DNA from: Leptolyngbyaceae cyanobacterium
GTDB taxonomy: Bacteria; Cyanobacteriota; Cyanobacteriia; Phormidesmidales; Phormidesmidaceae
Assembly (NCBI GenBank): GCA_965263355.1
Contig: CBDHHL010000044.1
Coordinates: 1 to 11,934 of the forward strand
Direction of reading: 5' to 3'
Length of the DNA stretch: 11,934 nt
Shown one piece after another: positions 1,769 to 11,934 of this stretch. Both the position numbers and the translations under genes were made by a program. Numbering within the stretch: the stretch's first letter is position 1; every line of letters begins with the position of its first letter. The notes under the pieces are model-generated. The model was not told the origin of the DNA. It searched no databases and was given only the letters and a program-made list of their open reading frames with translations.

Positions 1769-2668
1769 CTATAAGGTGCAGCAATCGACGAATGGCAGTT
1801 GGGCAAAATCTTCGAGATCAACTGACTCTAGTAGGCTATACCAATCGTTAGCAAGGTTAATATTGTCAGGATCTGCTCGATAAAGCTGACCTAATAGGGT
1901 AACGGCTTCTTGCCAAAGACCATTGCGAGCATATATGACAGCCTGGTCCCGAGGGCTAGCTTCAGCCAGAGGTAGACGTAAGTCTGGATCTAAGGGGACC
2001 CGCTCAATTGTTCCAGAGACATCCTGAAAATCATCGGCATCATCTTCAACGAGCAAAAGCCATTTATAGCGGTTATTCATTTGGAGTGCTAGTGGTAAGG
2101 TTACCTGCACGATACCCATACCACTAGCACTATTGATGGATACGTTGGCTTGGTAAAGCTGTTTTTCGTCTTCATCACTCAAGGTAAATTCTAAGGTAAT
2201 AGCATCCAGGTCATAGGGAATGTAAAACCAAAGGGTCGGTCTATCTTGGGTAGTCAGGCTTAGGACTGACTCGTAGGTATTAGTAACTAACCCTTCTGAG
2301 TTACTTTCAAAGGGGGTATGGGTCGCTGGTGTGAGAGCAGTCAGAGTGACTACACAAGTCCCTTGGCTATTGCCATTGTCTAGACTCTCGTTACCCGCTG
2401 AATGGTTGTTATCTTCTAGGCAACCTCGGCTACCCCCACCTCTACGTCCAGGGGGGGCTCCCCGATCCGCCAAAATAGGGGCATTGTAGTTGTAAGCCAC
2501 TTCTCCAATTGCATCTACCGAGAGAACGCTTAGCTCAGCTAGCCCTTGCTGAGTAGACGCTGGATTCTCGTCAGCCGATTCAGCCTGTACGCTGGTTGTA
2601 GAGAGCAGGGCCGTCGAACAGACAAAGGCACTGCTCAGTAGATAAGAAAGCATATGAGATAATTTCAT
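1769..2668 (-). CDS. DUF928 domain-containing exported protein
   Basis: 299 aa with a signal peptide (…SVQA|ES), the RGAPPGRRGGGSRG motif, RPTLWFYIPY, YARNGLWQEA and a C-terminal PFVDCC, all typical of cyanobacterial DUF928 proteins. Its start overlaps the upstream stop (ATGA, 2665-2668). Confidence 0.85.
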   Translation of the reverse strand: MKLSHMLSYLLSSAFVCSTALLSTTSVQAESADENPASTQQGLAELSVLSVDAIGEVAYNYNAPILADRGAPPGRRGGGSRGCLEDNNHSAGNESLDNGNSQGTCVVTLTALTPATHTPFESNSEGLVTNTYESVLSLTTQDRPTLWFYIPYDLDAITLEFTLSDEDEKQLYQANVSINSASGMGIVQVTLPLALQMNNRYKWLLLVEDDADDFQDVSGTIERVPLDPDLRLPLAEASPRDQAVIYARNGLWQEAVTLLGQLYRADPDNINLANDWYSLLESVDLEDFAQLPFVDCCTL

Positions 2669-5103
2669 GGGACCTCTTTCGTCATTGTGTTTGTTTGAGA
2701 CAACCTCAAATGTTCAGTTATAGGGATGCTACTGGCGATGGTCAATAATAGAATTGCTGGAGGAACCCAGGGCACCCAATAATGAGACTTGACAAGTAGT
2801 AACCCACAGATGCCCAATAGACCTAATTCTGTTCCCAATAGGGTGAATACCCAATAAGTGATGCCATGGCGGTAGGTTTTGCCAAGACTGAACATGGTCA
2901 GGATAATGATCAGGCTACCCAGACATCCCCACAACACAATCCAAAGAGTCTCACCCCATTCTGGCCAAGTTTTTAATAATGGCCGATTATCTAAAACTGC
3001 GCTGAGAAGATGACTGATCATTTGAGCTTGCAAAAATACCCCGCTGGTTTGATGTTCCACCCTGGGGCTTTGGCTATAGGGGGTGAGCCAATAATCGCCA
3101 AAACTTTTGTCGGTGGTGCCAATTAAGACAATGCGATCGCGAATTAACGCTGGTGACACCTTCCCTTCCCGTAGGTCAGTGAGGGTAACGTGTTGAGCAA
3201 TTTGATCGGGACTATCTAGCCGACGATAATTTAATAATAGCTGATGGCCCCAGGCTTCGATACCCCGATAGCCACCTTCGTTGGTTTCGATGGGAGTAAA
3301 AATAAGATTACCCAGTTGTAAATAACCTTCGGGGGAAGCCTGAATCGTCACCTTTTCTGCTGAGAGATAGCTAAAGGCCAATTTTGCACTTAAACTATGG
3401 GTCGCTAGACAGGAGGAAGCAGGATCTGGAGTTAGGGCCAACAGCTGTCGTCGCAAGACTCCATCCGCATCGGCAATAAAATCACTAAACCCAATTCTGT
3501 CTTCAGGCACTTCGGGGGGTGGTGCAATACCATCACTGTTGGCTTGAGCATCACGACTCTTGCAGATAGTAACAAGCTCATTATGGGCTGTCAGCTGTTC
3601 AGCTAATTCAGGGAAGCTAGACAAGACTGGAAAATCTCGATAAATATCTAAGCCAATTACCCGAGGTTCCATCGTTTCTAAGTGTTTCAAACTGTCTAAT
3701 AACGCTTGATCTGAGAGAGACCCACGGGGCTGTTCATCCTTTTGAGCCTGAACATCTTTTTCTGTAATCTTAACCACCACCAGACGAGGGTCAGGCAACT
3801 CTTTAGAACGCATTTTTATAAAGCTGTCGAAGGCTTTTAACTCCAGCCCCTGAAATAGACCCATGTAGCGAAGACCAATAATTGCGATAGTGAACACAGC
3901 ATGGGTAAGCAACATTAAACCAGGTCTAGGAACAGGCGGAGGTGGCGGTGGCAACGGTGGCACCTGCGGTGACAGTTGGATGAATTCATGCCACAGGGGG
4001 GGACTATGGGCCGGATTTTGATAGATGGTAGGAAGCCAAGAGGCACAGGGGAATATATCTTCTAACCCTTGTAACTTCTCTCGCGCTTCTCTCATTGCTA
4101 AATATAACGTCTCTCCCCGAGAAAAGGCTTCTAAAAAGGCTTTTAGAAATGTGTGGGCTACTCGATCAGACACCACTTCTTGCATCACAAGAATTTGGGG
4201 AATTTGTAAATCTGCCAGGGATTGGGCTAACCCGAGCCCATCACAAGAGTTAAAAATGGCAACCTTAAGCCCCCGTGCCAAGGCCGTTTGTAACGCATTT
4301 TTAAGTTGAGGAATGGTAATGACATCGGTTGAACTAATGTGCAAGAGTCCAGTTGAATTGTTCTTATTTGCAGGCGATGAACTCACTTGTTTCCAGTCTG
4401 CCTGGCTAGAGCTATGGCCTGCGAAAAATAATATATCCCAGCCTTGGGTGTCCCAGAGATGGGTATCCAGGGTTTGGCGGTCGGGTTCTGTTAAACAATG
4501 GATGTCTGTGTTGGGTAAATGATTGAGCAATGCTAAATCTGTTTCAATGTCTAACCCCTGACTATCGCCTAATACGGCTAAAATACGGACCTGATTTCGA
4601 GTTTTGGTAACGGCAGGAGTCCTTTTTTCATAAATAGGGGCGCTAAGGGCAATTTCCAGGTGGGGATAGCGATCGCAAATATCCCACCGATGCCAGGGGA
4701 GACGCTGCACAATATCCTGTTGAGTTTGCACAATTAACCGAATGGTATCGTTTGGACTCAATTGCTCCAACAGCTTGTCTTGGACAGGACGAAATGACTC
4801 TGCACGTAACCATTGGTTAAAGGCCCGTTGCAGCTTTTCAGCCAGGTCATAACAGTCTTCTACATAGGACACATTAGTAGCAAACCCGGTTGAACTCTTG
4901 CCCAGCCGAAAAGGCCCAGGGCCACTTAATTGGCGATAAGCGACCTGCCATTGCTGATAATGCGATCGCAAGTCTGGTGCAGCAGGTAAGTGGCCTATAA
5001 CTTCAGTGATGGGTATCTCGTTTTCATAGCCAACTTGTAGGTTCACCGAAAAGCCAGTGCCTAAACTACCATCATTTAGTTTTAAGGTGACACGCTTATC
5101 CAT
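2665..5103 (-). CDS. CHAT (caspase-like protease) + CHASE2 transmembrane sensor protein
   Basis: 812 aa. N-terminal CHAT region with LPWHRWD, WDILFFAGHS (His230) and AIFNSCDG (Cys287); proline linker; TM; CHASE2 motifs (LELKAFD, DPRLVVVKITEKD, PRVIGLDIYRD, GFSDFIADADGVLRRQLL, DRIVLIG, GVFLQAQMISHLL); three C-terminal TMs and no further cytoplasmic domain. Confidence 0.9.
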   Translation of the reverse strand: MDKRVTLKLNDGSLGTGFSVNLQVGYENEIPITEVIGHLPAAPDLRSHYQQWQVAYRQLSGPGPFRLGKSSTGFATNVSYVEDCYDLAEKLQRAFNQWLRAESFRPVQDKLLEQLSPNDTIRLIVQTQQDIVQRLPWHRWDICDRYPHLEIALSAPIYEKRTPAVTKTRNQVRILAVLGDSQGLDIETDLALLNHLPNTDIHCLTEPDRQTLDTHLWDTQGWDILFFAGHSSSQADWKQVSSSPANKNNSTGLLHISSTDVITIPQLKNALQTALARGLKVAIFNSCDGLGLAQSLADLQIPQILVMQEVVSDRVAHTFLKAFLEAFSRGETLYLAMREAREKLQGLEDIFPCASWLPTIYQNPAHSPPLWHEFIQLSPQVPPLPPPPPPVPRPGLMLLTHAVFTIAIIGLRYMGLFQGLELKAFDSFIKMRSKELPDPRLVVVKITEKDVQAQKDEQPRGSLSDQALLDSLKHLETMEPRVIGLDIYRDFPVLSSFPELAEQLTAHNELVTICKSRDAQANSDGIAPPPEVPEDRIGFSDFIADADGVLRRQLLALTPDPASSCLATHSLSAKLAFSYLSAEKVTIQASPEGYLQLGNLIFTPIETNEGGYRGIEAWGHQLLLNYRRLDSPDQIAQHVTLTDLREGKVSPALIRDRIVLIGTTDKSFGDYWLTPYSQSPRVEHQTSGVFLQAQMISHLLSAVLDNRPLLKTWPEWGETLWIVLWGCLGSLIIILTMFSLGKTYRHGITYWVFTLLGTELGLLGICGLLLVKSHYWVPWVPPAILLLTIASSIPITEHLRLSQTNTMTKEVP
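3133..4969. repeat. Three HIP1 octamers (GCGATCGC) at 3133-3140, 4669-4676 and 4962-4969
   Basis: Exact palindromic octamers seen in the sequence; HIP1 is a cyanobacterial genome signature. Confidence 0.8.
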
Positions 5104-5112
5104 TCACCCGCC

Positions 5113-6153
5113 TTAGACGATAAATTGTTCCGAATGGTAGATATCTTCCAATTTAAGCTGAGTTGTAAAGGGCTCACCCAGTTTGCCCGTAAACTGTAGC
5201 TGAATGTAATTATCGGCTTGCCGCGCTTGAGCTTGCATAAACACCTCCCCAGATCCATCTATGATCAACAATTCTAAATCTGGAGGTAAACAAGGTTGGT
5301 CAACCGGATAAGCTTGCACGCTGATGTGAATTTCATCCATCGTCTGAGATTGTAAGCGGATCAACAGTAAAACCCGTTGCATTCCTAGTCGCACAGCCAG
5401 GTTAAGCAGTTTACCTCTATGCACACTCGCCCCAGTCTCTTCAGTCAATTGGCTACTGAGAGGACGTTGGTGATCAAATTCAGAACTTTGAGGGTCAGGG
5501 CCCCTATGACTGAATGCGGGGGTTAAGCTGACCGTACCTAAGAGTTCTTCAAGGGTTTGCCAGCCATTGTCACTAGCATCGACAATACTATCAAACCAAT
5601 GACTCAGGGTTGCCAAGGGGCTACGATTCGCTTCCGTTTGGAGGCTAGCTGGCACTGGCGTTAAGCTATGAAGATGATCAATCAGCTCTTCTGGAGGCTT
5701 GAGATCGCTTAGTGCCAGGGTTTCATTGGTAACGTTTGAGGTAAACCCCAACAATCGGGCCGTTTGTAAATCTTCACTCAATTCCACTACGCTATAGCCT
5801 ACCCGCAATGCCCATGTTTCAGGCGGAACAGCACAAGTCGTTGAGGGTGCGTATGTAGGGCGACATTCTAATCGTCCCATACCAGGGAGGACTAGATCGG
5901 CCACATCAGCCATCAGTTGTACCGCCGGATTCCAGCTATCACTACTGACCAAATCAGTTGCAATTTCTAGCATCTGGCAATAATCATTCATTGCCCAAAC
6001 GGCTAGCGTATTGGCGTACACCTGTCTGGCTTTGGCTACCGATGGTTGCTTGGCCGCAAATTGCTCTGCCTGCTCATGCGCCTCTGCTGTAATTGGCAAC
6101 GGCACGGCCATGGCATAAATCTTATCTAAACTCTTGCTCATAATAATCCCCAT
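5113..6153 (-). CDS. DUF1822 family protein (candidate anti-sigma/adaptor)
   Basis: 346 aa (alternative ATG at 6141). Family motifs: QVYANTLAVWAMNDY, SDSWNP, ADLVLPGMGRLECRP, VPPETWALRVGY, ARLLGF, TLSHWF…GWQTLEELL, and C-terminal LPPDLELLIID…DNYIQLQFTGKLGEPF. Ends 9 nt before the CHAT-CHASE2 start. Confidence 0.85.
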   Translation of the reverse strand: MGIIMSKSLDKIYAMAVPLPITAEAHEQAEQFAAKQPSVAKARQVYANTLAVWAMNDYCQMLEIATDLVSSDSWNPAVQLMADVADLVLPGMGRLECRPTYAPSTTCAVPPETWALRVGYSVVELSEDLQTARLLGFTSNVTNETLALSDLKPPEELIDHLHSLTPVPASLQTEANRSPLATLSHWFDSIVDASDNGWQTLEELLGTVSLTPAFSHRGPDPQSSEFDHQRPLSSQLTEETGASVHRGKLLNLAVRLGMQRVLLLIRLQSQTMDEIHISVQAYPVDQPCLPPDLELLIIDGSGEVFMQAQARQADNYIQLQFTGKLGEPFTTQLKLEDIYHSEQFIV

Positions 6154-6201: not shown

Positions 6202-6837
6202 TTATAAATAGCCTTGATTTTGGCCAAATTCTCGCAAGAGGGGCATGCACTGACGCTGATAAAAGCTGGCTAAAGTACCAATAGAGACATTTAAATCTGC
6301 TGCCAATACTTTCCAAGGCGCTTCAGGGGGCAATCGTCTTAAAATCAACAAGCGGGCAGTAATATTGGGATGACCCAAAATATGAATCTGTTGAAGTCGC
6401 GGGTCTGTCTCAGCCCACTGTTTCACGTCCTGTAACATTGGTGGAATATCAGGTTTAGCCTCTAATAGATCAATTGGGTCAGTAGGGGGATTGTCTCCCA
6501 TTAGATTAAATAGAGGTTTTGCCTTTTGCTTGTTTTCGGTTGTTTTAGCAATGTACTTATCTTGTAAACGACGTTTCAAGTAAGCGTTTAACCAAGTGAT
6601 AAGACTAGCTTTTTGTGGATCGTAAACTTTGCCAGTTTTGGCTTCACATAGATTTTGACAAAAGTAAATCCAGGTCTGCTGCAAAGCGTCTTGATAATAG
6701 GAGACGTTTTCATTCCAAAGTTTATCTGACACCAGCCGAATGATTTGGGTCAAACGCTTTTGGCGTTGAGCACTCCCTATTCGGTGACGACACGCGTCAG
6801 CAATTAGGGCTTGAATATGTTCCTGGAAGTTGTCCAT
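6202..6837 (-). CDS. Atypical small sigma-70 family (ECF-like) RNA polymerase sigma factor
   Basis: About 211 aa (ATG 6837; in-frame TTG at 6840). Region-2-like segment YYQDALQQTWIYFCQNL…YDPQKASLITWLNAYLKRRLQD and a C-terminal region-4-like HTH PWKVLAADLNVSIGTLASFYQRQC. First gene of the operon. Confidence 0.75.
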   Translation of the reverse strand: MDNFQEHIQALIADACRHRIGSAQRQKRLTQIIRLVSDKLWNENVSYYQDALQQTWIYFCQNLCEAKTGKVYDPQKASLITWLNAYLKRRLQDKYIAKTTENKQKAKPLFNLMGDNPPTDPIDLLEAKPDIPPMLQDVKQWAETDPRLQQIHILGHPNITARLLILRRLPPEAPWKVLAADLNVSIGTLASFYQRQCMPLLREFGQNQGYL

Positions 6838-6880
6838 CAAAAATTATCACTCGTTACAAGGAGCAATAGTTAGCGACCTC

Positions 6881-6917
6881 TACATAACCTATCAGAGGTA
6901 ATCACAAAAATCATGCA
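6881..6917 (-). promoter_or_regulatory. Variant of the repeated bipartite promoter-like motif, upstream of the sigma gene
   Basis: Minus strand reads TGCATGATTTTTGTGATTACCTCTGATAGGTTATGTA. TGCA and TGATAGGTTA sit at the same 23-nt offset as in three of the four plus-strand copies; the site ends 43 nt before ATG 6837. Confidence 0.5.
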
Positions 6918-7009: not shown

Positions 7010-7046
7010 TGCAAAAAAGCTGAAATTTGCCCTGATAGATCAATAG
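7010..7046 (+). promoter_or_regulatory. Bipartite promoter-like motif, copy 1
   Basis: TGCAAAAAAGCTGAAATTTGCCCTGATAGATCAATAG, ending 127 nt upstream of ATG 7174. Confidence 0.75.
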
Positions 7047-7173
7047 GAGGCTTAGACGCTGAATTTATTGATGTTGCCTGTATGCTTCTAACCCAGATGA
7101 ATACAAACCATGGTTGCTTCAATATTACTTAATACATTCAATATTACTGAATACGAACAATGAGCAATAAACG

Positions 7174-7446
7174 ATGAAAAAGGCACGTTATTTAATTTTA
7201 CTAGGTTTCTTTGTTCCCATTATAGGTATAGGCCTGATTGCAGCCTTTATTATGCCTATTTCAATGAATTTAGGGATTTTCCTAAGTTATTTTCTAAGAC
7301 TAACTTCTTTAGTTGTCTTTACTTGGGGATGCGTAGAGTTAGCTAAGGCTAAAGGCTACCATCCGATGTGGGGAGTCTTAGGACTAGGGCTATTGTGGGG
7401 CTTATTAGCTCTTATTCTTTTACCTACAAAAAAGAAAATACGTTGA
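7174..7446 (+). CDS. Small hypothetical membrane protein (about 3 TM)
   Basis: 90 aa with a basic N-terminus, three hydrophobic stretches, a LAKAKGY…WG.LGL…LILLP motif and a basic C-terminus. Confidence 0.7.
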   Translation: MKKARYLILLGFFVPIIGIGLIAAFIMPISMNLGIFLSYFLRLTSLVVFTWGCVELAKAKGYHPMWGVLGLGLLWGLLALILLPTKKKIR

Positions 7447-7489
7447 ATTCTCCTTGAAGTATAAAAGAAAAAAATATTATTTACCAGCA

Positions 7490-8005
7490 ATGACTAAACG
7501 ACAGTCCTTGAATAACTCTAAAAAACTCACTTATTGTCCTATTTACCAATCCTTGGGACGCTTTGTTTTTCTGTTGGCAATTACCTGTGGAACCTACGGT
7601 CTTTATTGGCATTATAAACATTGGTACTGTTTTGGCTATCGTAGATTTAGTGCAGTTTGTTTCACGCTCTTTAGTCCCCTAACAATTTCAGGTCTTGCCA
7701 GACATATTTTTCAATTAGCAAACGATAAAGGGATTAAGGTAGGGATTGAACCTAAAATTTTCTTACTTGCTTATTTTATAGGCAATATTATCTCTTCTCA
7801 AGGGCCAGGACTTTGGTCGCTGTTAGGGCTATTGATGATCGTATTACCAATGCTCTACATGCAACATTGTCTGAACCTTTACTGGGTGCAACAACAGCCT
7901 CAGTGCCAGAAAAGCCTTTTTCTATCTGCAGAAGTCGTGGGTTGGTCAGTTTTAGGCGTAGGGATTTGGATGAGCAGTTTAACAAGTGACATGGGGGCTC
8001 TCTGA
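7490..8005 (+). CDS. DUF4234-like integral membrane protein
   Basis: The ORF track starts at TTG 7454; the in-frame ATG at 7490 is more likely. Motif LLAITCGTYGLYWHYKHW, several TMs, then MQHCLNLYW. Confidence 0.65.
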   Translation: MTKRQSLNNSKKLTYCPIYQSLGRFVFLLAITCGTYGLYWHYKHWYCFGYRRFSAVCFTLFSPLTISGLARHIFQLANDKGIKVGIEPKIFLLAYFIGNIISSQGPGLWSLLGLLMIVLPMLYMQHCLNLYWVQQQPQCQKSLFLSAEVVGWSVLGVGIWMSSLTSDMGAL

Positions 8006-8035
8006 CGTTAGCAATATATTAAAATTCAAGATAAT

Positions 8036-8072
8036 TGCAAAAAAATTGAAATCTTACCTGATAGGTCAATAG
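8036..8072 (+). promoter_or_regulatory. Bipartite promoter-like motif, copy 2
   Basis: TGCAAAAAAATTGAAATCTTACCTGATAGGTCAATAG, 31/37 identical to copy 1, ending 61 nt upstream of ATG 8134. Confidence 0.75.
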
Positions 8073-8250
8073 ACAGATTCAAAAGGCCAAATAAGGTTGA
8101 GCCAGGATGTGATATTGACCCAGGTATTTAACGATGATGAACAATAAGGTTTTCCATATTAATCAAATGTCTACTGTTCAAGTGGCTAACCAGTTAAAAA
8201 AGCTGAAGCTAGAAACAATGCTCAGCATTGCTGATGTTTACTACTATGCT

Positions 8251-8258
8251 AATATCTT
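8251..8258. repeat. IS66 target-site duplication, left (AATATCTT)
   Basis: Identical to 9887-9894 and directly abuts GTAA. Confidence 0.93.
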
Positions 8259-8324
8259 GTAAGCTTTCAGCGGGTCTAAGTTTTGAGAGGTCTCAAGAAG
8301 CCGAGTACCTGGTAGAGTAAGCCT

Positions 8325-9869
8325 ATGAAAGATAAGGCTCTCCCATCGATACCCACAGTCAGCGAAGCGGACTGGGAAAAGACACCGTCCAGCGTTAAGA
8401 CGTTGGTTCTGAGTCTAGTGACAAGAGTCGAGGAATTGGAGAACCAGTTCGAAGAACTGCGAGCAGAAAATACTCAACTACGCGCAGAAAATACTCAACT
8501 ACGCGCAGAAAATGAATTGCTCAAAGAGAAGCTGCAGCGCAATAGTCAGAACTCATCTCAGCCACCATCGGAGGATAAAGCCAAAGGATTTAAGCCGAAG
8601 AAACCTCGCAGTGGTCGCTCGCGAGGAGGCCAACTCGGACATCCGGGGAAAGGGCCGAAGCTATATCCACCGGAGGCGTGTGCCCGCATCGACCACTATT
8701 ATCCAAGCCACTGTCATCACTGTGGGGAGGCGTTATCAGGAGAGGACCCCAGTCCCTATCGAGTGCAAAAAGTAGACGTACCCCAGATAAAACCAGTTGT
8801 CGTCGAGCATCGATTTCACCAGTTAGCGTGTGAGTGCTGTGGGGCGTTGACACGGGGCTGGGACGAAGGGGTGATCAACACTCCGAGATATGGCGAACGG
8901 CTGACGGGATTGGTGGGGTGGCTTAGCAGTGTCGGTCATCAGTCCCATGGGCAGGTGAAGGACCTGTTGTGTGAGGTGTTTGATATCGAGATATCAACGG
9001 GAGGCATCAATCGTCTGCGGATGGAGTTGTCAGAGTCATTGTCAGCCATCGTGGAGAGTGCGGGGGAGTATATTCAGCAACAAGCCCAGGTGAACATGGA
9101 TGAGACGGGCTTTCGCCAAGGGAATGGGGATGGGAAAAATCCCCAGAAAAGTAAAGGGTGGTTGTGGGTTGTGGTGACCCCGTTAGTGAGCTATTTCTCG
9201 GTATTTCTGTCTCGCTCACAGGGGGTAGCCAAAGAGATGTTGGGTGACGCCTTCGGTGGCATTGTGGGCAGTGACCGATGCGGGGCCTATAGTTGGTTAG
9301 GCAATGCCCAACGACAAGTCTGTTGGGCTCATCTCAAACGAGATTTCACCAAAATCGCTGAACGCTCAGGGCGATCCACTAAATTGGGAAAGGCCCTGCT
9401 CAAACAACAAAAGCGATTGTTTGAGCGTTGGTATCAGGTCCGAGATGGAACCCTACCTCGAGGCGATTTTATCGAGCAGGTCAAGCCGATTCGGTGTGAA
9501 CTCAGGCGATTGCTTAATGAAGGAGCCGATTACGAGATTGAAAAAGGCGATAAGACCTCGTTCGCTAAGACGGTTCGCACCTGTCGGAAACTGCTCACCG
9601 TTGAGCCAGCTTTCTGGACCTTTGTCGAGCATGACGGGGTAGAACCCACCAATAATGCGGCGGAGCGTGCCCTGCGCCCTGCGGTCTTGTGGCGTAAACA
9701 GAGTTTTGGAGCCAATAGCCAAGAGGGGAGTCAGTTTGTGGCCCGGATGATGACTACCGTCACCAGCTTAAAGGCCCAGCAACGTTCAATTTTTGACTTC
9801 CTGAGCGATGCCGTAAAAGCTTCTCGTCATGGTTCTCCTGTGCCTTCATTGATACCTGAAGGAGACTGA
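8325..9869 (+). CDS. tnpC: IS66 family DDE transposase
   Basis: 514 aa. Leucine zipper, NSQNSSQPPSED, RGGQLGHPG, zinc finger CHHCG…CECCG, and catalytic motifs MDETG, SDR, QVCWAHLKRDF, PTNNAAERALR. Confidence 0.96.
   Translation: MKDKALPSIPTVSEADWEKTPSSVKTLVLSLVTRVEELENQFEELRAENTQLRAENTQLRAENELLKEKLQRNSQNSSQPPSEDKAKGFKPKKPRSGRSRGGQLGHPGKGPKLYPPEACARIDHYYPSHCHHCGEALSGEDPSPYRVQKVDVPQIKPVVVEHRFHQLACECCGALTRGWDEGVINTPRYGERLTGLVGWLSSVGHQSHGQVKDLLCEVFDIEISTGGINRLRMELSESLSAIVESAGEYIQQQAQVNMDETGFRQGNGDGKNPQKSKGWLWVVVTPLVSYFSVFLSRSQGVAKEMLGDAFGGIVGSDRCGAYSWLGNAQRQVCWAHLKRDFTKIAERSGRSTKLGKALLKQQKRLFERWYQVRDGTLPRGDFIEQVKPIRCELRRLLNEGADYEIEKGDKTSFAKTVRTCRKLLTVEPAFWTFVEHDGVEPTNNAAERALRPAVLWRKQSFGANSQEGSQFVARMMTTVTSLKAQQRSIFDFLSDAVKASRHGSPVPSLIPEGD
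8463..8513 (+). repeat. 21-bp tandem repeat (about 2.4 exact copies) in the transposase leucine zipper
   Basis: GCAGAAAATACTCAACTACGC at 8463-8483 and 8484-8504, plus GCAGAAAAT at 8505-8513; encodes AENTQLR AENTQLR AEN. Confidence 0.93.
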
Positions 9870-9886
9870 CCCTCCTGAATCTTTAC

Positions 9887-9894
9887 AATATCTT
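9887..9894. repeat. IS66 target-site duplication, right (AATATCTT)
   Basis: Identical to 8251-8258 and directly follows TTAC. Confidence 0.93.
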
Positions 9895-10122
9895 TGACTT
9901 ACATCAGCCTCTATTTCCTTGGAGCTTTCCTGAATCCAGGAATCCCTCTAGATAGGGAAAGTTTATCTTCAAAGTCGCGCATAAATTTTTTTCTATATAA
10001 GGTTTTCTAGTTTTCCCTCGATTCGCTGGCATCCTCCTGATTTTACAGGGGGGTGCCTTTTCTTTTAATTGACTCTTTTCATAGGTAAAAACTGCCAACT
10101 TTCAAAAAAGATTGGAGATGAT

Positions 10123-10158
10123 TGCAAAAAAAACCAACCTTAACTGATGAGTTAATAG
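10123..10158 (+). promoter_or_regulatory. Bipartite promoter-like motif, copy 3
   Basis: TGCAAAAAAAACCAACCTTAACTGATGAGTTAATAG (spacer 1 nt shorter), ending 66 nt upstream of ATG 10225. Confidence 0.7.
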
Positions 10159-10224
10159 GGCAACTTATAAAACCCTTAATAACAAAGTTGCTCAAAAAAT
10201 GTGAAACAATACGAGGATAAAGTC

Positions 10225-11511
10225 ATGAGTGGCTCATTTAACAGCATTAATGGGGACAACAATGCCAACAATATTACTGGCACCAACCGTAAAGATTTTA
10301 TTCGTGGGTTTGGCGGTAATGATACGATTTGGGCAGGAGCGGGTGATGATCTTGTCGATGGTGGTACTGGGAACGATACCCTTAGGGGCGAATCTGGCAA
10401 TGACCAGCTTAATGGACAAAATGGTAATGACCTAATCTTAGGCGGCAATGGTAATGATAGGCTTTTTGGAGGTGATGGTAACGATAGAATAGCAGGAGGG
10501 TTTGGCAACGATTATCTTGTCGGAGGTCGTGGCGGCAATGATTTTATGGCCGGTCAACAGGGCAATGACACCTATGTTGTTCTTGACTCGAATGATAAAG
10601 TGACCGAATTTTCAGGCCATGGGACTGACCTGGTGCGGAGTTTTATTCCTACCTATAGGCTGACAGCTAATGTTGAGAACCTTACATTGGCAGGCTCAGC
10701 CGTTCAGGGGTATGGTAATGGCTTGAATAATAGAATTATTGGGAATAGTGGCAACAATATCCTCTTTGGTGAAGGTGGCCGAGACTTTTTGAACGGTGGT
10801 CGTGGTGCTGATCGCATGTATGGTGGTGCCCATAACGACACTTACATGGTGGATAACAAGGGCGATAGAGTTTTTGAGTCTCGTAATCAAGGTTATGACC
10901 GTGTATTTTCGACTGTTGGATTCACTCTAGGAAACAATATAGAGGAACTAACCCTGAGGGGTACTGCATACCTAGGCTATGGAAATAACCTAAACAACAG
11001 AATTGATGGCAACAACTCTGCCAACCATCTGTGGGGGGCCGCTGGCAACGATACCATTTTTGCCAACGGCGGCAATGATCTAGTTCGTGGGGGCATTGGT
11101 AATGACTACTTACATGGTGGTAGAGGCAACGATGAATTAGTCGGCGGTAGTGGCAATGATACCTTAGTAGGGATTGCAGGCAATGACATCTTGATCGGTG
11201 ATGCGGGAGCAGATAAGTTTACATTCTTCAAATTCACCGATGGTGTTGACCAGATCAAAGACTTTTCGAGAGGACAAGGGGATAAGATTGAGGTTGTGGC
11301 TGCAGGCTTTGGAGGTGGCCTGGCGAAAGGAGTATTATCTAGCGATCAGTTTGTCTTAGGCTCTAGTGCACATGATGCGAATGATCGGTTCCTCTATAAC
11401 AATGGCGTCCTATCGTTTGACAGGGATGGTATTGGTGGGGCATCGGCTGTCCGAATCGCAACATTTAGTGGTAATCCCACATTGACCCACAGCGATATTG
11501 TTGTGATTTAG
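10225..11511 (+). CDS. RTX (hemolysin-type) calcium-binding protein, probable type I secretion substrate
   Basis: Many GGxGxDxLx nonapeptides, two related DTY.V…VE.LTL.G…GYGN.LNNRI.GN modules 90 codons apart, and a C-terminal DQIKDFSRGQGDKIEV…LTHSDIVVI tail. ATG 10225 follows GAGGA (10213-10217), so it is preferred to GTG 10201. Confidence 0.92.
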   Translation: MSGSFNSINGDNNANNITGTNRKDFIRGFGGNDTIWAGAGDDLVDGGTGNDTLRGESGNDQLNGQNGNDLILGGNGNDRLFGGDGNDRIAGGFGNDYLVGGRGGNDFMAGQQGNDTYVVLDSNDKVTEFSGHGTDLVRSFIPTYRLTANVENLTLAGSAVQGYGNGLNNRIIGNSGNNILFGEGGRDFLNGGRGADRMYGGAHNDTYMVDNKGDRVFESRNQGYDRVFSTVGFTLGNNIEELTLRGTAYLGYGNNLNNRIDGNNSANHLWGAAGNDTIFANGGNDLVRGGIGNDYLHGGRGNDELVGGSGNDTLVGIAGNDILIGDAGADKFTFFKFTDGVDQIKDFSRGQGDKIEVVAAGFGGGLAKGVLSSDQFVLGSSAHDANDRFLYNNGVLSFDRDGIGGASAVRIATFSGNPTLTHSDIVVI

Positions 11512-11598
11512 AAGGTAGATAGAGTTGTTTTCATAGGGGATTCTCAGCATCTTTAACGGTTGCATGTATCTCCTGAAGAGAGGCTCCTTGAGATATGG

Positions 11599-11635
11599 TG
11601 CATCGCCCGATTTTTGGAGTCGAGTGGTGCATTTT
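11599..11635 (+). terminator. Possible intrinsic terminator after the RTX gene
   Basis: TGCATCGCCCGATT-tttgg-AGTCGAGTGGTGCA forms a 14-position stem with three G-U pairs and one mismatch, followed by TTTT. Confidence 0.5.
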
Positions 11636-11719
11636 CATATGATACCAAATCCGAATTTCCCGACTTAAATTGATATCCAACATTTGCACAGTTAGATGCC
11701 AAAAATAATTTTGGGATAG

Positions 11720-11756
11720 TGCAAAAAAGTTAAGAGTTTACTTGATAAGTCAATAG
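11720..11756 (+). promoter_or_regulatory. Bipartite promoter-like motif, copy 4
   Basis: TGCAAAAAAGTTAAGAGTTTACTTGATAAGTCAATAG, ending 81 nt upstream of ATG 11838. Confidence 0.75.
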
Positions 11757-11837
11757 AGCTTATGTTGCCCATTTTTTATCTACGCCTATTTTCAATTATT
11801 CAAAACTTTGACCTCTTCGACTTAAAGGAAAAAACTC

Positions 11838-11934
11838 ATGGCTACAATTAATGGCACTCCCTTTAATGACAACAATACTGTTAATGGCGTTCCTCTCATT
11901 TTTCGTTCAGCATTGGTAGGTACTCCGTTGAATG
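11838..11934 (+). CDS. 5' part of a probable second RTX/calcium-binding protein (runs off the window)
   Basis: AAGGA (11825-11829) then ATG; reads MATINGTPFNDNNTVNGVPLIFRSALVGTPLN…; I.GT..ND starts are typical of cyanobacterial RTX proteins. Confidence 0.65.
   Translation, partial: MATINGTPFNDNNTVNGVPLIFRSALVGTPLN

Follow-up and report, generated by a model that had tools for sequence, protein, structure and literature searches.

The closest described systems join a caspase-fold protease or another partner protein to an atypical sigma factor, and are given here as set out in the portions of the respective papers drawn on. Neighbourhoods of EACC2-caspases with a sigma factor of the extracytoplasmic function (ECF) type and DUF1822, which is there labelled a tetratricopeptide repeat (TPR) protein, led to the proposal of a protease-triggered transcriptional output (Kaur et al., 2021; PMC8195603). 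The type III-E CASP system comprises the CHAT protease Csx29, the inhibitor Csx30 and the ECF factor CASP-sigma (Strecker et al., 2022; PMC10028731), and sigma-HetZ of Anabaena PCC 7120, a protein of ~400 residues with insertions, reads the DIF1 promoter TCCGGA / TGnA (Hu et al., 2026; PMC13342950). Here we consider an 11,934-nucleotide stretch of a Leptolyngbyaceae cyanobacterium (contig CBDHHL010000044.1, assembly GCA_965263355.1; hereafter the window), in which a protein with a caspase-fold domain and a C-terminal sensor is encoded beside a divergent sigma-like gene and a DUF1822 gene, and in which a short two-box DNA motif recurs before start codons. The sigma/DUF1822/caspase cassette has been known since 2021 and is experimentally untested in the literature found; its two-box motif is probably a dedicated ECF-type promoter.

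Conserved and oriented, the two-box motif keeps its boxes at a fixed distance and is likely to serve as the -35/-10 promoter for the ECF-type sigma-like product of 6202-6840. It is real, one copy precedes the sigma gene, and it recurs across cyanobacteria next to related genes; through it the sigma factor would therefore probably activate its own gene as well as genes for secreted proteins.

A two-box element before start codons

A sequence-only reading of the window had proposed four same-strand copies of the motif as the recognition sequence of the adjacent sigma factor. All four are present on the plus strand with the sequences it gave, starting at 7010, 8036, 10123 and 11720 and ending 127, 61, 66 and 81 nt 5' of the ATG codons at 7174, 8134, 10225 and 11838, respectively. 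A fifth copy, on the minus strand ~41-44 nt 5' of the sigma-like start and putatively autoregulatory, had been overlooked and was located by a weight matrix scan; it scores 16.7 against 20.9-32.2 for copies 1-4, with 0.035 matches of at least 16 expected per resampled window, the matrix having been rebuilt from matches in related loci after first being seeded with the window copies, of which it is thus not fully independent. The pattern of the sequence-only reading matches the window four times and 200 dinucleotide shuffles not once, a significance that is overstated because the pattern had been fitted to copies 1-4 themselves. Identity between the flanks of the copies is near background (10-18 of 40 positions upstream, 7-12 of 40 downstream), as that reading had remarked. 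There is no Rfam match, and a scan with the housekeeping sigma-70 consensus gave no plus-strand site that coincides with copies 1-4. The copies are as follows, where A-, G- and T-type refer to the fifth base of the first box, and L and G labels denote related loci and genomes.

7010..7046, plus strand: motif copy 1, with A-type first box TGCAAAA, 15-nt spacer and CTGATAGAT; predicted promoter of 7174-7446 and 7454-8005
8036..8072, plus strand: motif copy 2; predicted promoter of the small open reading frame (ORF) at 8134, homologues of which follow A-type sites in L001 and L002
10123..10158, plus strand: motif copy 3, with 14-nt spacer; predicted promoter of an RTX-repeat gene; directly 3' of a terminator-like hairpin
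11720..11756, plus strand: motif copy 4; predicted promoter of the ORF beginning at 11838
6881..6917, minus strand (read 6917 to 6881): motif copy 5, TGCATGA-N15-CTGATAGGT; would drive the sigma operon, by autoregulation or cross-regulation; 48 of 80 related loci have an equivalent same-strand site 5' of their sigma gene

These 80 loci of sigma homologues form the related-locus set, and it is via such relatives that the regulon of the source genome is predicted. Iteration of the weight matrix over the set returned 89 matches, compared with 1, 2 and 7 in Markov controls, and gave the general consensus YGCA(G/T/A)AA-N15-CTGATARST. GCA.AA and GA..(R)(S)T with the 15-nt spacer are invariant across the relatives; the original consensus is over-fitted, its terminal AATAG being only weakly conserved. 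The spacer measures 15 nt in 80 of 84 distinct sites. Intergenic positions account for 77 of these sites, and a same-strand ATG lies within 300 nt of 71 of them, as against 18 on the opposite side; the comparison counts for 252 random positions are 63 and 43. Oriented, start-proximal matches near genes for RTX and secreted proteins had been predicted for relatives and are indeed found there; the opposite pattern, a genome-wide scatter blind to orientation, was looked for and not seen. The genes downstream of the sites encode the sigma factor itself, DUF1822, DUF928, TPR-CHAT, LuxR-type, RTX and M10 protease proteins, together with serralysin-like, TPS, PPC, subtilase and FG-GAP proteins, and in some genomes the sites also precede genes for kinases, TerD, an Hsp70-like protein and a PLD-helicase; 11 of the 29 downstream proteins scanned are without a Pfam match. 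Two boxes at a fixed spacing, oriented before start codons and with a copy 5' of the sigma factor's own gene, are among the hallmarks of an ECF-type promoter, and together with the secreted-protein targets and the ECF-like protein model they lend computational support to the proposal that the adjacent sigma recognizes the motif.

Some loci depart from the simple arrangement. A promoter-bearing unit is tandemly repeated two to four times in L203-L206 and L213-L215 (e.g. G285:C1:248761-249228), with a unit of 143-146 nt, or ~350 nt where an element is inserted, before a divergent large gene that is RTX-rich where scanned; expression is possibly tuned here via promoter copy number. L301, L302 and L303 encode C-terminally extended family members of 367-375 residues (L302:6557-7657), and instead of preceding the sigma gene their site stands at its 3' end, directly 5' of DUF1822. 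A gene for a LuxR-type helix-turn-helix (HTH) protein, 3-7 kb 3' of the sigma gene, has a G-type site of its own in L011, L012, L032, L035, L037, L146 and L147, which suggests a second regulatory layer.

The distribution of the motif was compared across 145 genomes of at least 3 Mb out of 301 sampled, with DUF1822 scored as present at E<1e-30. DUF1822 occurs in 93 of the 145, and among these genomes, related by descent as they are, motif density is 0.477/Mb with DUF1822 and 0.068/Mb in the 52 without it; a reversed-pattern control gave 0.059/Mb and 0.068/Mb, so that genomes without DUF1822 are at control level. At least three matches are found in 33/93 genomes with DUF1822 and in 0/52 without. 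With ~10-12 loose-pattern matches per genome versus 1-4 control matches, the regulons look small, as judged by pattern counts. The Fischerella, Scytonematopsis and JS3 genomes gave no match to a stricter version of the pattern. The Moorena genome of L018 (G006) holds tandem repeats of the heptamer GCTGATA that imitate the second box and make up 22 of its 27 pattern matches by our own tally; its five non-repeat sites are all T-type.

The sigma-like protein and its gene cassette

The AlphaFold (AF2) model of the 6202-6840 protein has a predicted local distance difference test (pLDDT) score of 80.3. Its residues 5-105 align with SigW at Z 9.7 (root-mean-square deviation (rmsd) 2.8, 88 residues aligned), as well as with SigC at Z 8.7 and region 2 of RpoE at Z 8.4, and thus adopt a sigma-2 fold in the model. 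The best Foldseek rows are nearly all sigma factors, none of them at E<=0.001. The C-terminal domain aligns with sigma-4 domains at Z 5.3-6.8 and likewise with other HTH proteins. The protein has no match among PDB sequences; a profile of 100 diverse family members matches SigK (E=0.0014) and RpoE (E=0.002), and Sigma70_r2 (PF04542) is matched by 26/100 of these members and PF04545 by 2/100. The 211 residues, with two ordered domains and a low-confidence linker at 106-131, fit a small ECF (group 4) factor that has neither sigma-3 nor region 1.1. The sigma-like character claimed for the neighbour is thus borne out by an ECF-like fold and by family profile matches: the protein models as an ECF-type sigma, from which we infer sigma activity. 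Identity with HetZ was considered and rejected, given the different promoter boxes and an hhalign probability of 0.6% (9 HetZ-like sequences, shallow alignments).

The remaining features of the window are listed below; the first four form a minus-strand operon, and the DUF1822 gene follows the sigma gene in 68/80 related loci.

6202..6840, minus strand: sigma-like gene, divergent ECF-type, 211-212 residues, predicted sigma-4 helix SIGTLASFYQRQ
5113..6153, minus strand: DUF1822 gene (E=2.7e-71), candidate sigma partner with a putative role
2665..5103, minus strand: membrane protein with CHAT (caspase-fold, E=1.4e-12) and CHASE2 (E=4.9e-63), His motif AGHS and Cys motif NSCD both kept
1769..2668, minus strand: DUF928 gene, with a predicted signal-like N-terminus
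7174..8005, plus strand: two small predicted membrane proteins, of 90 residues and of 183 residues, the latter with a weak DUF4234 match (E=0.0019) below the cut-off
8134..8258, plus strand: 5' part of a small conserved ORF split by IS66, 62% and 46% identical over 42 residues to L001 and L002
8259..9886, plus strand: IS66 insertion with an 8-bp target-site duplication and a transposase at 8325-9869, interrupting the ORF after copy 2
10028..10057, plus strand: hairpin of 12 pairs followed by a T-run, terminator-like, 5' of copy 3
10225..11511, plus strand: protein with RTX calcium-binding repeats, for which enzymatic and toxin models all stay below their cut-offs
11838..11934, plus strand: further ORF, start only, cut off by the window end

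The ~55-residue relatives of the ORF at 8134 (L001:1173-1337; L002:9251-9415) likewise have no Pfam match and always lie 3' of an A-type site. A gene for a solute-binding-protein and ion-channel fusion, which we take to be GluR0-like, lies at 305-1489 on the same strand downstream of the cassette.

In the CHAT-CHASE2 protein ~200 residues precede the CHAT match, and for this N-terminus we borrow the label EACC2 (Kaur et al., 2021; PMC8195603). The model of DUF1822 shows an N-terminal PD-(D/E)XK nuclease-like fold (I-Ssp6803I Z 8.9, rmsd 2.9, 114 residues aligned; Hjc-type Z 7.6), with D86 and R98 invariant, and a C-terminal Ig-like beta-sandwich; it has no Foldseek match at E<=0.001. The model thus consists of these two domains and not of TPRs. 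Kinship of DUF1822 with PatU, raised by an Atlas lead ('putative PatU', score 0.83), is unsupported at 0.05% in a profile alignment (5 PatU-position sequences, shallow).

In the mechanism that we envisage, region 4 of the sigma factor would contact YGCA(A)AA and region 2 would open CTGATARST, and transcription would start ~6-8 nt past the last invariant T, that is at 7045-7047, 8071-8073, 10157-10159, 11755-11757 and 6882-6880. The fifth copy would provide positive feedback, although it is weaker and T-type and may be read by a paralogue. In what is the least supported step, drawn by analogy with Csx29, Csx30 and CASP-sigma, a signal at CHASE2 would activate the CHAT protease, which would free the sigma factor from DUF1822 and induce a limited set of genes for secreted and surface proteins.

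Which protein reads the sites

A comparison of 120 family genomes related the fifth base to the sigma factors present. The window's version of the motif, TGCAAAAAA (strict A-type), has five matches in G001 and four in G002, which are 9 of the 18 matches among the 120 genomes; the other 118 hold nine single matches, and there are seven control matches in all. L001 and L002 lie in G001 and G002, respectively, and encode sigmas that have 74% and 70% identity to that of the window and, like it, the helix GTLAS, so that the A-type version appears, on sequence evidence, specific to this branch of the family. For the G-type pattern, the 51 genomes that encode a sigma homologue contain 76 matches and the 69 that lack one contain 9 (own tally). 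Over all loci, helix and base agree for G..A with A in 9/11, G..S with G in 71/81, K..E with G in 26/26 and S..S with T in 22/23 cases, and out of sample, in new loci only, G..S with G in 12/14, K..E with G in 21/21 and S..S with T in 7/8; paralogous loci within G001, G002 and G004 differ in the fifth base. A second DUF1822-linked sigma-70 family, encoded 5' of DUF1822 genes, consists of long forms of 390-560 residues that pass the TIGR02937 cut-off and have no detectable homology with the short form in profile comparison. At most long-form loci TGCATAA is joined to a different second box, CCTATA, and many of those in L318-L337 and L293-L298 have a divergent TGCATAA-N15-CCTATA overlapping their own start codon.

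Several observations weigh against recognition of the sites by the adjacent sigma factor. The site is absent 5' of the sigma gene in 32/80 loci, including those of Moorena, Fischerella and Acaryochloris and mostly on one side of the tree. The protein itself matches no Pfam or NCBIfam model and so reaches no sigma model. Fewer than three matches occur in 60/93 DUF1822 genomes, and the genome-level counts are confounded by shared ancestry, the genomes not being independent. RNA reads from four runs on the related locus L302, of shallow depth (mostly <16x), show no 5' pile-up at the predicted starts, and a published Synechocystis 6803 promoter table (PMC10359606) yields no full motif to exact-string searches with few variants, which gave one TGCATAA and no second box. 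The first box is common to the second DUF1822-linked sigma family and the short family, and in G171, G191, G223 and G289, which yielded no short form, the complete motif TGCATAA-N15-CTGATAAGT stands upstream of long forms; G001 has at least three genes each of the short and long form. Of 218 distinct proteins 111 have sites, and on their tree the link between helix and base counts 2-3 independent contrasts (p=0.5), with no contrast running the other way; L396 and L399 break the link. Given these few contrasts and the two exceptions, the helix-base code is a lead and not a result, and since the long forms share the T-type motif, T-type sites including the fifth copy are not assignable to one sigma. 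The same kind of exact-string search with few variants gave no promoter sequence in the five supplementary files of PMC8155712; the motif is undescribed in the literature searched, in which subscription journals and bioRxiv supplements are sparsely covered.

Of the other explanations, the one with most weight also takes the sites for sigma promoters but assigns their reading chiefly to a different DUF1822-linked sigma encoded elsewhere, either a long form or a short paralogue, with the adjacent gene a target and not the reader. The full motif before long forms in four genomes, the T-type sites lying away from the short sigma gene in several Nostocales-type genomes, and the T-type fifth copy and its equivalents in L001 and L003, although the neighbouring sites are A- or G-type, all speak for it, but enrichment of A-type sites is confined to the two genomes whose sigma has the GTLAS helix while long forms are widespread, and the differing second box of most long forms fits it poorly; we regard it as unlikely. 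A non-sigma DNA-binding protein, such as DUF1822, whose modelled nuclease-like N-domain could bind DNA, or the LuxR-type regulator, whose genes follow some sites, might instead use the motif as an operator, and three window copies contain the palindrome TGA-N4-TCA. This palindrome is kept in 14/84 sites, however, and was rejected as the basis of the element, which is strictly directional; the distance between the boxes beside an ECF-fold protein suits a sigma factor better, and base 5 tracks the sigma helix, leaving an operator improbable. Least probable of all, and already largely refuted, is that the copies carry no regulatory meaning and are left over from a dispersed repeat, the end of a miniature inverted-repeat transposable element or a duplicated cassette: the tandemly duplicated units of some loci and the Moorena heptamers resembling the second box are in its favour, whereas the window flanks are dissimilar, the two boxes alone are conserved across distant cyanobacteria, orientation bias is strong with no orientation-independent scatter, and density falls to background in genomes without DUF1822.

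Recognition by the adjacent sigma factor is therefore retained as the preferred reading, and a broader one can be put forward as a conjecture that we hold less probable than its negation. Cyanobacteria may have expanded caspase-gated sigma circuits on the single scaffold YGCAxAA-N15-CTGATARST, with paralogues insulated by one -35 base read by the sigma-4 helix (Gly..Ala for A, Gly..Ser or Lys..Glu for G, Ser/Ala for T); the circuit in the window would then be A-coded and control a regulon of secreted proteins, perhaps under an upstream T-coded sigma, with DUF1822 as a regulator of nuclease fold and not a TPR protein. If one -35 base does separate paralogues, nature would here offer a compact case of insulated sigma factors, from which orthogonal switches could be drawn for engineering cyanobacteria. 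The cassette is widespread, and a precise promoter would make reporters, start-site mapping and genome-wide regulon prediction feasible and the trigger of the caspase-fold sensor open to screening.

Comparison with known systems

The window has the same genes as the system of Kaur et al. (2021; PMC8195603), namely a caspase/CHAT protein with CHASE2, an ECF sigma and DUF1822, and section 9 of that paper is without promoter, regulon, paralogue specificity or experiment. Sigma-HetZ and DIF1, in the parts of PMC13342950 drawn on, are alike in pairing a cyanobacterial atypical ECF sigma and a co-encoded partner with a two-box promoter, there with a 16-17 bp spacer; they are unlike in their boxes, and the window protein has no NF037963 match. 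The CASP system (PMC10028731) is alike in its CHAT protease, its ECF sigma and the clustering of sigma sites inside the locus, indicating positive autoregulation, while it is triggered by CRISPR RNA in the cytoplasm; the window has a membrane CHASE2 sensor and no Cas genes, and DUF1822 is a putative partner only. Canonical ECF factors such as SigW, SigK and RpoE differ from the window protein in that structural alignments give only 14-20% identity and in that it reaches no Pfam or NCBIfam sigma model. The boxes of the motif differ from those of RpoE or SigW. The likeness to these canonical factors lies in the predicted build of sigma-2 and sigma-4, the probable promoter at the sigma factor's own gene, the small regulon and the candidate regulator encoded next door.

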